Part shown: piece after piece, positions 2,819 to 5,427 of the stretch
Layout of the letters: each line of letters starts with the position of its first letter
How positions within the stretch are numbered: the stretch's first letter is position 1
Assembly (NCBI GenBank): GCA_027031765.1
Contig: JALVPN010000071.1
Span: 1 to 5,604 of the forward strand
Direction of reading: 5' to 3'
Length of the DNA: 5,604 nucleotides
From: Promethearchaeota archaeon
GTDB taxonomy: Archaea; Asgardarchaeota; Thorarchaeia; Thorarchaeales; Thorarchaeaceae
Program-made: the position numbers and the translations under genes
The notes under the pieces: model-generated
Databases searched by the model: none
Seen by the model: the letters and a program-made list of their open reading frames with translations, nothing else
What the model was told of the DNA's origin: nothing

Positions 2819-3751
2819 TCAGGTCTGACGGTCGGGTGGAGTCCTGTCCGTACGTAGGTTGACGACGGAAATCCCCGAAACGACCAGCACGAGCCCCGCG
2901 ATGGATGTCCAGTACAGTGATCCACTGAGGACAAGCACTGAGAGGAGAGTGCCGAACACAAAGACCAGGTTGATGAACATGCTCGCCCTGGTCGCACCGA
3001 TGGTCTGGATGGCCCTGAAACAGAACAGGGACCCGAGAAAAGAGACCATGCAGCCCAAGAAGACAACATTGGCCCAGAACACGGCACTGTTCAGGGCTGG
3101 CAGGGCCCAGAAGCCCTCCACAGCTGCGCCCACACCGAAGAGCACCATCCCACCACGACACCACCGCCAGTGGCCTCAATGGGTTGACGTTGAGCGCATC
3201 ACCGACTTACCAAAGGAAGAGTACAGTCCCCACATCATCATTGCGCAGAGGATGAGGAGGTCTCCGAAGAGGTGGTCGGGTCTGAAGTCTATGAGCGACT
3301 GCAGACCAATCACAAAGACGACACCGGCGAAACTGAGCACGTAGCCTACGTACTGCCACCTCCTTGCCAGTCGTCCCCCATGGAACAGGTGGGCAAACAT
3401 ACTGACTACTACAGCGTTCACACCCGCGATGATGATCCCCTGCGCAGCAGTGGTAGAGGAAAGGCCCACAATGAAACAGACACCAGACCCAAAGACCCCA
3501 GTGGCTCCGAGTAGTAACGAGTGCCTGACGACACTGTCGGTACTAACACGCGGTGTCCGGAACCACGGTACGACGAGGGATAGGAACAGCAGTGTCACAC
3601 CAGGGGGCCTGAAGAAGCTGATTGTCATGGGTGGGACGAGGCCGACAAGAACTTCTGCGGACACCCAGCTACCGCCCCAGGACAGCACCGTCATGAGGAG
3701 GAGCAGGAGGCACCCGGTCACGTCAGGATCCGACACACCTTGAGGAGGCAC
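2819..3751 (-). pseudogene. EamA/RhaT (DMT superfamily) transporter, ~310 aa, interrupted by two compensating frameshifts (pseudogene or sequencing error)
   Basis: ORFs 3176-3751 and 2819-3148 are in the same frame and together give two EamA repeats (LSWGGSWVS...FFR..., LLGATGVFG, TTAAQG, MMWGLYS, IGATRASMFINL, IAGLVLVVSGISVVN). They are separated by TGA at 3176-3178. Removing one base at ~3184 and adding one at ~3149 restores ...MRSTSPIEATGGGVVVGMVLFGVGAAVE..., a continuous hydrophobic helix. The start is GTG 3751 or GTG 3736. Confidence 0.88.
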
Positions 3752-3986: not shown

Positions 3987-3999
3987 CAACACTTAACAA
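3987..3999 (+). promoter_or_regulatory. Putative BRE-TATA promoter for the 4036 gene
   Basis: CAACA-CTTAACAA lies ~40 nt upstream of the TTG start and shares the CTTAA core seen upstream of ClC. Confidence 0.45.
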
Positions 4000-4035: not shown

Positions 4036-5427
4036 TTGGCACGCTCGGATCTTATCCACTACTTTGACAAGGGAAAATACCCTGAACACACAAAGGCCAC
4101 TGCGGGCCTGATAGTCGTGTTCGGGACGTTCTGTGGTCTCGGTGTGTACTCCCTCTGGAGCCTCTGGGCTGAGTATGGCACTGAGATCATGAATGCAATC
4201 GAGTCCATAGGACTGCCGGAGGTGCTGACATCAAACCTCTGGCTGATAGCCGGCCTGCTCGCAGTGCTGCTAGTACTGAGCCTCGCGATGGCCATCGGCG
4301 CAGCGAAGGTGGCAAAGAGTCTGGGTGGGACGCTGATATACATTGGCGCCATCCTCATCAACATCGTGACCTGGAGCGTGGTCGCCATCCCTGTGCTCAC
4401 TGGGGCCATGACCGTGTCCGAGGTCGTCACTGCGTGGCCTATCATGCTGCCCGGGCTGTTCACGCTCTTCATCACACTGCTCCTGTTCACAGCGTTCAGG
4501 AGCCGTGTCAGGAGGGCCGGGCGCATAGTCCAGCTCACAGGGCAGGTATGCATTGATGAGAAGGGCACATTTGTACCACCACTGGCAGCGATGTTGGGCA
4601 CGCTGCTGTCCGCACTCATGTTCGGCGCAATCGTCCTGAGGTTCATGCCGTCCGGTGTGTGGCTAGGGACAGAAACACTGACCCTTGAGAACGGCTGGCC
4701 AATAGGTGTTGCCGTAGTGCTCTACCTGTTCATGACCATCTTCTTCTACAACTTCGCATACGCCACAACATCCGCAATCGTCTACATCTACATGCGTGGT
4801 CGGGACCCATCACTGAGCGACGGTGTGAAGGCCTCGCTGGGAGTCCTCGGCGGACTCGTAGCCCTCAGCATCATGAGCGTGATAGTGACAATCATCCGGA
4901 TGATAATCCGCGCAATATCAAGGAAGAGTGGTGCCGGCGGACGCGTGGTCGGTTCCATAGCGGAGGGCACAATAGGCTGGGTCTGGGCCCTCATCAACTA
5001 CTTCACCATACCGGCCATGGTCGCTGAGAACCTCGGTGCCACGGACGGGATAAAGAGGAGCGCCGGTCTCGTGCGGCGGAACTTCGTCGATGTGATAATC
5101 AAGGAAACAGCGGTGCGGTGGGCGTTCATGGTGCTCGCATTCATGTTCTTCTTCGGCTTCGCCATTGCAGGATATGTCGTCGGGTACTACCTCAACTTCG
5201 GCTCGGCCAACGCAGTGATGATGGGGATAGTCTTCGCCATAGTGTTCTTGGTGTTCGCATCAGTCCCCAGTGCCCTCGTACTACGCACCTTTGACATCGT
5301 CTACATTACTCTGCTGTACGTGTTCATCCGCCAGAAGGCCGGCGAAATCACAGGCGAAACTGCAATCCCGAAGTCCATGGAGAGAGAGCTCTCAAGCGCC
5401 TACTCTGCAGCCCAGAAGGGCAGGTAG
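4036..5427 (+). CDS. Polytopic membrane protein (~10 TM, 463 aa), choline-transporter-like (CTL/SLC44/Pns1)-related with a DUF6159-like C-terminal region
   Basis: A long uninterrupted ORF with an SD. Hydrophobic segments lie at about aa 23-44, 68-90, 97-121, 134-154, 178-203, 221-253, 268-291, 313-329, 362-386 and 393-431. Motif-like stretches are FRSRVRRAGRIVQLTGQVCIDEKGTFVPP, YMRGRDPSLSDGVKASLGVLGGLVALSIMSVIVTIIRMII and WVWALINYFTIPAMVAENLGATDGIKRSAGLVRRN. The CDS itself is near certain. The family assignment comes from remembered motifs, not a search. Confidence 0.75.
   Translation: MARSDLIHYFDKGKYPEHTKATAGLIVVFGTFCGLGVYSLWSLWAEYGTEIMNAIESIGLPEVLTSNLWLIAGLLAVLLVLSLAMAIGAAKVAKSLGGTLIYIGAILINIVTWSVVAIPVLTGAMTVSEVVTAWPIMLPGLFTLFITLLLFTAFRSRVRRAGRIVQLTGQVCIDEKGTFVPPLAAMLGTLLSALMFGAIVLRFMPSGVWLGTETLTLENGWPIGVAVVLYLFMTIFFYNFAYATTSAIVYIYMRGRDPSLSDGVKASLGVLGGLVALSIMSVIVTIIRMIIRAISRKSGAGGRVVGSIAEGTIGWVWALINYFTIPAMVAENLGATDGIKRSAGLVRRNFVDVIIKETAVRWAFMVLAFMFFFGFAIAGYVVGYYLNFGSANAVMMGIVFAIVFLVFASVPSALVLRTFDIVYITLLYVFIRQKAGEITGETAIPKSMERELSSAYSAAQKGR

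Follow-up and report, generated by a model that had tools for sequence, protein, structure and literature searches.

A gene in the archaeal contig JALVPN010000071.1 (Promethearchaeota archaeon, family Thorarchaeaceae) encodes a membrane protein that is almost certainly a choline transporter-like (CTL) fold homolog, this fold being that of human CTL1 and yeast Pns1. The window, by which we mean the whole stretch of DNA that was analysed (5,604 nucleotides), is a complete contig of 5.6 kb; the genome it comes from spans 2.95 Mb at 95% completeness and carries a single CTL-like gene. Our results support the gene as an archaeal, minimal-form member of the CTL/SLC44/Pns1 superfamily. The protein consists of two modules: a CysZ-like core, running from the amphipathic helix AH1 to the transmembrane helix M10 and common to bacterial six-transmembrane-helix DUF6159 proteins, and a preceding module, M1–M4, that within this analysis was found only in Asgard archaea and eukaryotes. 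An original prediction, made by a model from the sequence and its open reading frames, had proposed an Asgard origin for the gene, correctly, as well as homology to CTL/SLC44/Pns1.

Ten-helix architecture and homology to CTL1 and Pns1

The reading frame opens after a TAA at 3994–3996 and holds no canonical in-frame start upstream of its TTG. Orthologs cover 100% of the window protein and align from residue 1, and the TTG start is therefore well supported. An antisense open reading frame at 4059–4646 lacks support and was set aside as spurious, and no convincing promoter, ribosome-binding site or terminator was found in the sequence around the gene. The closest proteins are 56–67% identical, have 454–481 amino acids and come from metagenome-assembled genomes (MAGs) mostly labelled Thorarchaeota; the Thorarchaeota chromosome CP070761.1 carries an ortholog as well. 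At E ≤ 1e-3, a word-indexed search returned 243 homologs and an exhaustive phmmer search 712, and the homology signal is far beyond chance. For Asgard MAG proteins, the taxon names given by submitters cannot be relied on: Thor-type orthologs of 60–62% identity carry Loki- or Odinarchaeota labels.

An AlphaFold2 model, computed without templates on an alignment of 39 Thor orthologs (A1), is all-helical (pLDDT 81.3, pTM 0.82), with helices in the order M1–M4, AH1, M5–M6, AH2, M7–M8, AH3 and M9–M10. The features of the gene are as follows (window positions, strand).

4036–5427, +: coding sequence of the CTL/SLC44-like membrane protein (463 amino acids; TTG start, TAG stop)
4090–4488, +: predicted N-terminal four-helix module M1–M4 (residues 19–151; M1 19–57, M2–M4 68–151)
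4462–5319, +: Pfam Choline_transpo (PF04515) match (model 6–319 of 326; 25.7 bits, cutoff 26.9)
4498–4557, +: AH1, predicted basic amphipathic helix between M4 and M5 (residues 155–174, RSRVRRAGR..., five Arg)
4561–4794, +: helical hairpin M5–M6 (residues 176–253; model helices)
4714–5328, +: Pfam DUF6159 (PF19656) match (residues 227–431; 50.6 bits, cutoff 27)
4813–4842, +: AH2, predicted short helix between M6 and M7 (residues 260–269; preceded by a conserved RGRDP..DG turn)
4846–4995, +: predicted helical hairpin M7–M8 (residues 271–320; basic stretch at the end of M7 and the hairpin tip)
4996–5079, +: family signature NYFTIPAMVAE...GIKRS..LVRR (residues 321–348), including AH3 (335–348)
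5083–5337, +: helical hairpin M9–M10 (residues 350–434; model helices)
5371–5418, +: predicted C-terminal hydrophilic helix (residues 446–461; lower model confidence)

In this model, the ten transmembrane helices and AH1–AH3 have the order and three-dimensional arrangement of human CTL1 and yeast Pns1. The CTL topology comprises ten helices with amphipathic helices linking M4/5, M6/7 and M8/9, related by threefold pseudosymmetry (PMC13160678), and the helices at residues 155–174, 260–269 and 335–348 sit exactly at these linker positions; AH1 and AH3 are basic. The modelled helices agree with the layout of about ten transmembrane segments and a basic amphipathic segment proposed beforehand, and the motifs on which that proposal drew are all in the translation where it had placed them: RSRVRRAGRIVQLTGQV followed by GTFVPP (155–182), YMRGRDPSLSDGVKASLGVLGG...IIRMI (250–290), W..INYFTIPAMVAE..G...GIKRS..LVRRN (317–349) and TFDIVYITLLYVF (418–430). 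No internal threefold repeat was detectable in the sequence, with hhalign comparisons between the units of amphipathic helix and hairpin all at E > 0.02.

Comparison of the model with the PDB (Foldseek) identified yeast Pns1 (9f63; E = 8.9e-8, TM scores 0.64 and 0.69) and human CTL1 (9qu3, 7wwb) as the only relatives, all remaining matches having TM ≤ 0.19. The structural alignments span model residues 2–453 and 16–461, at a structure-based identity to the eukaryotic proteins of 12–15%. Profile searches returned the same proteins. Alignment A1 matches A2, an alignment of strongly PF04515-positive Asgard proteins, over 436 columns (hhalign, E = 3.6e-45), and the sole PDB match of A2 is Pns1 (E = 6.3e-15), beginning upstream of the PF04515 domain. 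A6, an alignment of 42 Asgard sequences headed by the window protein, matches exactly three PDB sequences, namely Pns1 (E = 9.8e-21, profile positions 13–398, starting at Pns1 residue 78) and two human CTL1 entries (E = 4.4e-9, profile positions 41–429); AH1 aligns with the R-x-R-I segment of Pns1. Because of these A2 and A6 matches, homology covers the N-terminal helices and goes beyond structure prediction. The four additional N-terminal helices had been predicted to be CTL-like, and both the A6 profile and the structural alignment include them.

The eukaryotic proteins are more elaborate. Pns1 (PDB 9F63; about 12% identity) has a 76-residue disordered N terminus and longer loops, and shares with the window protein a short M1–M2 connection, of about 10–20 residues in our model. 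Human CTL1 (SLC44A1; 9QU3, 7WWB) has 657 amino acids and carries between M1 and M2 an extracellular domain of about 150 residues (63–213) that the window protein lacks. Given that the M1–M2 connection of Pns1 is also short, this domain marks the animal subfamily and not the family.

Both Pfam families named in the original prediction were recovered, one of them below its cutoff. DUF6159 (PF19656) is matched by the window protein (hmmscan, E = 2.9e-13, 50.6 bits, above the 27-bit cutoff) and by 39 of the 39 aligned orthologs. A six-frame genome search with PF04515 recovers the window gene over model positions 6–319 of 326 (25.7 bits, E = 6.2e-6). In A1, PF04515 is matched by 25 of 39 orthologs; the ten orthologs analysed in detail (60–67% identity) match it end to end (4–324 of 326) at 25–31 bits, straddling the cutoff of 26.9. 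Scores are 17–31 bits across the Thor clade, 42–56 bits for the remoter full-length Asgard relatives P0126, P0127 and P0147, and 50–57 bits for Heimdall proteins, with a maximum of 72.6 bits in the Asgard genome scans. GPDPase_memb (PF10110) matches residues 323–410 weakly (23 bits, cutoff 29.6), a match that recurs in 37 of 39 orthologs, and an NCBIfam scan of the window protein matched no family.

Three results count against membership of the superfamily. The window gene falls 1.2 bits short of the curated PF04515 cutoff; hmmscan of the window protein alone lists no PF04515 match; and the Thor profile A1 alone finds nothing relevant in the PDB, the broader A2 and A6 being needed. The basic tip of the M7–M8 hairpin is at odds with a simple positive-inside topology. 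The 26.9-bit gathering cutoff is an operational annotation threshold and not a structural feature, and we class the window protein with the CTL-fold superfamily, as a divergent member that does not count as a threshold-passing PF04515 entry.

The six-helix core and its prokaryotic relatives

The 712 phmmer relatives are of two kinds: full-length proteins of 440–510 amino acids, and many proteins of about 285 amino acids that match residues ~155–432 only. The short relatives are genuine DUF6159 proteins (P0144, for example, scores 173 bits and has no PF04515 match) from Chloroflexota, Ignavibacteria, Acidobacteriota, Myxococcota, Lysobacteraceae, Planctomycetota and Cyanobacteria. They align from AH1 onward only (hhalign, E = 1.8e-26 with A1 and 3.6e-24 with A2). 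Bacterial DUF6159 proteins share with the window protein the signature P..V.E..G...AIKRS and the G..P...DG turn; with six helices, they lack the four N-terminal ones, and the window protein adds about 155 residues. In the ESM Atlas, the window protein's own cluster is 98% archaeal, mostly Thorarchaeota, and the remaining neighbours are short bacterial families (DUF6159, DUF624, BPSS1780-type and DUF7847/GPDPase_memb).

To place these groups we used a maximum-likelihood tree on the shared core, comprising 67 sequences (25 short and 42 ten-helix Asgard proteins) and no eukaryotic ones. Short and ten-helix proteins are split by a branch with SH-aLRT support of 100; inside the Asgard group, the Thor sequences form a single clade of their own (100). 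Because of this split, the window protein is not an intermediate, as the original prediction of a bridge between DUF6159 and SLC44 would have had it; instead, DUF6159 is related to the CTL-type family as a whole, through the core only. The window protein sits in a divergent Thorarchaeota clade surrounded by other Asgard clades. Proteins from Heimdallarchaeum aukensis and H. endolithica (UJG41882.1 and UJG44701.1, one copy per genome) belong to the same Asgard ten-helix family and fall on the same side of the fully supported split from the bacterial proteins, with only about 18% identity to the window protein.

The core also resembles the six helices of the sulfate permease CysZ (PDB 3TX3), with no sequence similarity detectable in these searches; CysZ is a reported hexamer with partly inserted hairpins and lacks the M1–M4 module. 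GPDPase_memb proteins such as Streptococcus pneumoniae WhyD combine the membrane domain with a fused glycerophosphodiester phosphodiesterase that is absent from the window protein; the WhyD paper describes remote homology of the N-terminal membrane domain to PF04515. Some Asgard CTL-like proteins have long C-terminal extensions (P0147, P0279, P0302/P0168 of ~670–720 amino acids, and P0128 of 506), one of which ends in a zinc-ribbon domain (PF13248/PF13240).

Conserved residues, proposed pocket and possible function

Across 42 Asgard clade representatives, S342 is the only invariant residue, and it is joined by G36, E175, R254, G379 and T425 in the near-invariant set. S342 lies in the GIKRS motif of AH3, and the equivalent AIKRS is invariant in bacterial DUF6159. 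By analogy with CTL1 and Pns1, the helices would form a bowl open to the outside, with the basic amphipathic helices as its floor at the cytoplasmic face. The polar residues with the strongest conservation, E175 (after AH1), R254 (before AH2), E331 and K340-R341-S342 (AH3), may contribute to a central pseudo-threefold pocket, in which a small polar or charged ligand could bind.

The reading we favour overall, to which we give an even chance, is that of a CTL-superfamily protein acting as a facilitative permease, whose small polar solute could be, for example, an organic cation or a phospho-headgroup-type compound. We favour a small-solute permease because of the core's likeness to CysZ and its remote relationship to the membrane domain of glycerophosphodiester phosphodiesterases. 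Solute transport by the window protein, argued from such analogies, may well occur, at a likelihood just short of even. Transport of choline and ethanolamine has been reported for human CTL1 and is now disputed; the original prediction had suggested the same substrates. Choline or ethanolamine seems an unlikely substrate here: nothing supports choline specifically, as a pocket tyrosine maps to leucine and no relevant genes are linked.

The permease interpretation has evidence set against it. Nel et al. (2026) argue that transmembrane transport appears incompatible with the CTL fold, and they prefer a role other than transport. CTL1 and PNS1 have a single conserved pocket residue in common, a tyrosine (Y495 and Y394, respectively), and it corresponds to L319 in the window protein, a mapping made through chained alignments rather than superposed coordinates, and the same position is an invariant Phe in the Heimdall-type clade A2. 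More broadly, the Pns1 pocket residues (R296, W390, E393, Y394, H397, D432, N436, E492 and R495) are mostly not conserved in the window protein, W390 corresponding to W315. Lastly, no choline, ethanolamine or lipid genes are linked to the CTL-like gene in the clades examined.

These observations bear on a second interpretation, which is quite possible but falls short of probable: that the protein has the CTL fold and is not a transporter, its bowl or groove binding a lipid, sterol-like or other ligand in membrane homeostasis, in sensing or with a protein partner, as Nel et al. proposed for eukaryotic CTLs. In their structures, most of the residues that are conserved from CTL1 to PNS1 are located in a hydrophobic groove with lipid- or sterol-like densities, and the ligand density in the pocket is too large for choline. 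The absence of the pocket tyrosine from the window protein and the lack of linked metabolic genes for a transported substrate fit this interpretation. Yet the six-helix core resembles CysZ, a sulfate permease, and is common to a very large bacterial family of stand-alone six-helix proteins; the most conserved Asgard and bacterial residues are polar and lie at the amphipathic-helix junctions, not in a lipid-facing groove; and no binding partner is conserved in the gene neighbourhood.

SLC44/CTL proteins have human disease links and a contested function, a 2026 structural study holding that the fold may not transport; a compact homolog from a prokaryote is a simpler object for structural and biochemical work. 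If the family is of Asgard origin and vertically inherited, the compact archaeal forms, free of both the extracellular domain and glycosylation, would be a natural model for the disputed SLC44 function.

Distribution, origin and genomic surroundings

To determine how widely the family occurs, we scanned 400 genomes of the window's phylum. PF04515 matches 137 of them (100 above the curated cutoff) and the A6 profile 182, in 50 of 85 genera; censuses based on PF04515 thus undercount the family. By GTDB family, A6 finds the gene in 62/85 genomes of f1 (Thor), 30/31 of f8 (which includes Ca. Heimdallarchaeum aukensis, CP084166.1, and H. endolithica), 17/22 of f11, 12/12 of f13, 14/19 of f14 and 14/14 of f21. 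The Pfam model, built on eukaryotes, fits some Asgard clades, Heimdallarchaeaceae among them, much better than it fits the clade of the window protein. Above the cutoff, PF04515 was found in none of the genomes of three DUF6159-carrying bacterial phyla (0/301, 0/251 and 0/251; 0/803 together) and in none of 14 named control genomes, including four non-Asgard archaea. All full-length relatives with a name come from Asgard archaea (Thor, Hel, Njord, Promethearchaeota and Asgardarchaeia), and the cluster that holds a lone 'Thermoprotei'-labelled member joins Asgard family f26 closely in the core tree. A core-only Asgard profile (A3) retrieved no eukaryotic CTLs among longer proteins and returned two long Asgard forms.

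The connection between domains is real, in the form of a divergent member, and had already surfaced at the level of annotation. NCBI names UJG41882.1 and UJG44701.1 'choline transporter-like family protein', and one preprint hints at an Asgard–eukaryote link without further discussion; to call the relationship unrecognised, as had been done for the window gene, was an overstatement. The link is not mentioned in the main text of the Nature Microbiology catalogue of eukaryotic signature proteins or in the 2021 Asgard transportome census, archaea are not mentioned in the 2026 CTL1/PNS1 structure paper, and a literature search for 'DUF6159' found no paper containing the term. To many orthologs with Thor or Hod labels NCBI gives only the name 'DUF6159 family protein', which hides their CTL relationship.

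An evenly balanced case can be made that CTL/SLC44 arose in Asgard archaea, by addition of a four-helix N-terminal module to an ancient prokaryotic six-helix DUF6159/CysZ-like core, and that eukaryotes inherited it vertically. For eukaryogenesis, the family adds a multi-pass membrane protein to the genes that eukaryotes have in common with Asgard archaea, and its build suggests assembly from core and module; if origin and inheritance were as outlined, CTL would be a membrane 'eukaryotic signature protein'. Three aspects of the data limit this scenario: the large Asgard family f22 has a copy in 0 of 135 genomes; non-Asgard archaea are covered by the four control genomes rather than by a systematic scan; and the core tree, without eukaryotic CTLs, gives no direction or age for the Asgard–eukaryote relationship.

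Transfer in the opposite direction, with Asgard genes derived from eukaryotes by ancient horizontal transfer or MAG contamination and therefore silent on the origin of the eukaryotic family, is very improbable. It could draw on that composition of the core tree, on patchiness within Asgard archaea (f22, and absences from some Thor genera in the A6 scan) and on the caution, in the preprint, that exclusive clusters can reflect transfer or uneven sampling. Contamination, however, is excluded by the position of the gene, in closed chromosomes with archaeal genes around it, and by a structure-based identity to eukaryotic proteins of only 12–15%. The Asgard clades are 17–30% identical to one another and 50 of 85 genera carry the gene, which points to long residence; the eukaryotic extracellular domain is missing from the Asgard proteins, whose core is strongly linked to prokaryotic DUF6159. 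Finally, that the protein is simply a DUF6159 protein with an unrelated N-terminal extension, its CTL likeness a convergence of helical bundles, agrees with its 50.6-bit DUF6159 match, the NCBI labels of its orthologs and its own sub-threshold PF04515 score, but is contradicted by the A6 matches to Pns1 and CTL1, the structural alignment and the core tree split, and is scarcely credible.

In family f21, which includes closed genomes of 4.4 and 6.0 Mb, 9 of 14 genomes have two or three weaker CTL-like matches, and two PF04515 matches (G137:C106:2359-3285 and G144:C750:5508-6440) lie in open frames of 2042 and 1065 amino acids that may be giant-protein fusions. Close matches of the f22 ribosomal protein L4 carry five inconsistent labels (Hod-, Prometh-, Thor-, Odin- and Hermod-archaeota).

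No gene neighbours are conserved across the clades examined. In the window, the following genes lie upstream of the CTL-like gene.

3–851, 1646–2125 and 2179–2700, −: CLC chloride-channel gene (truncated where the contig ends) and a tandem pair of universal stress protein genes

CLC and universal stress protein genes also adjoin the ortholog in Thorarchaeota CP070761.1 (locus L096) and are not found beside it in a second Thor contig (L097). In Heimdallarchaeaceae (L113, which is CP084166.1, L008 and L011), a conserved, divergently transcribed PfkB-family kinase gene lies beside the CTL-like gene, and H. aukensis has three Arf/Ras-type small GTPase genes ~5–8 kb upstream of it; in family f26, the neighbours are TldD/PmbA and a GT2 glycosyltransferase. 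Within the window, positions 1095–1580 (−) encode 161 amino acids with a Thr/Ser-rich stretch, a C-terminal hydrophobic anchor and a basic tail; the product matches no Pfam family and, judged by its sequence, looks like a surface-anchored protein. An EamA/DMT-family transporter gene (2819–3751, −) is broken by an in-frame TGA at 3176–3178, which may reflect nonsense mutation, an error of sequencing or read-through; its two open reading frames (3176–3751 and 2819–3148) are in the same frame and jointly encode a protein of ~310 amino acids.
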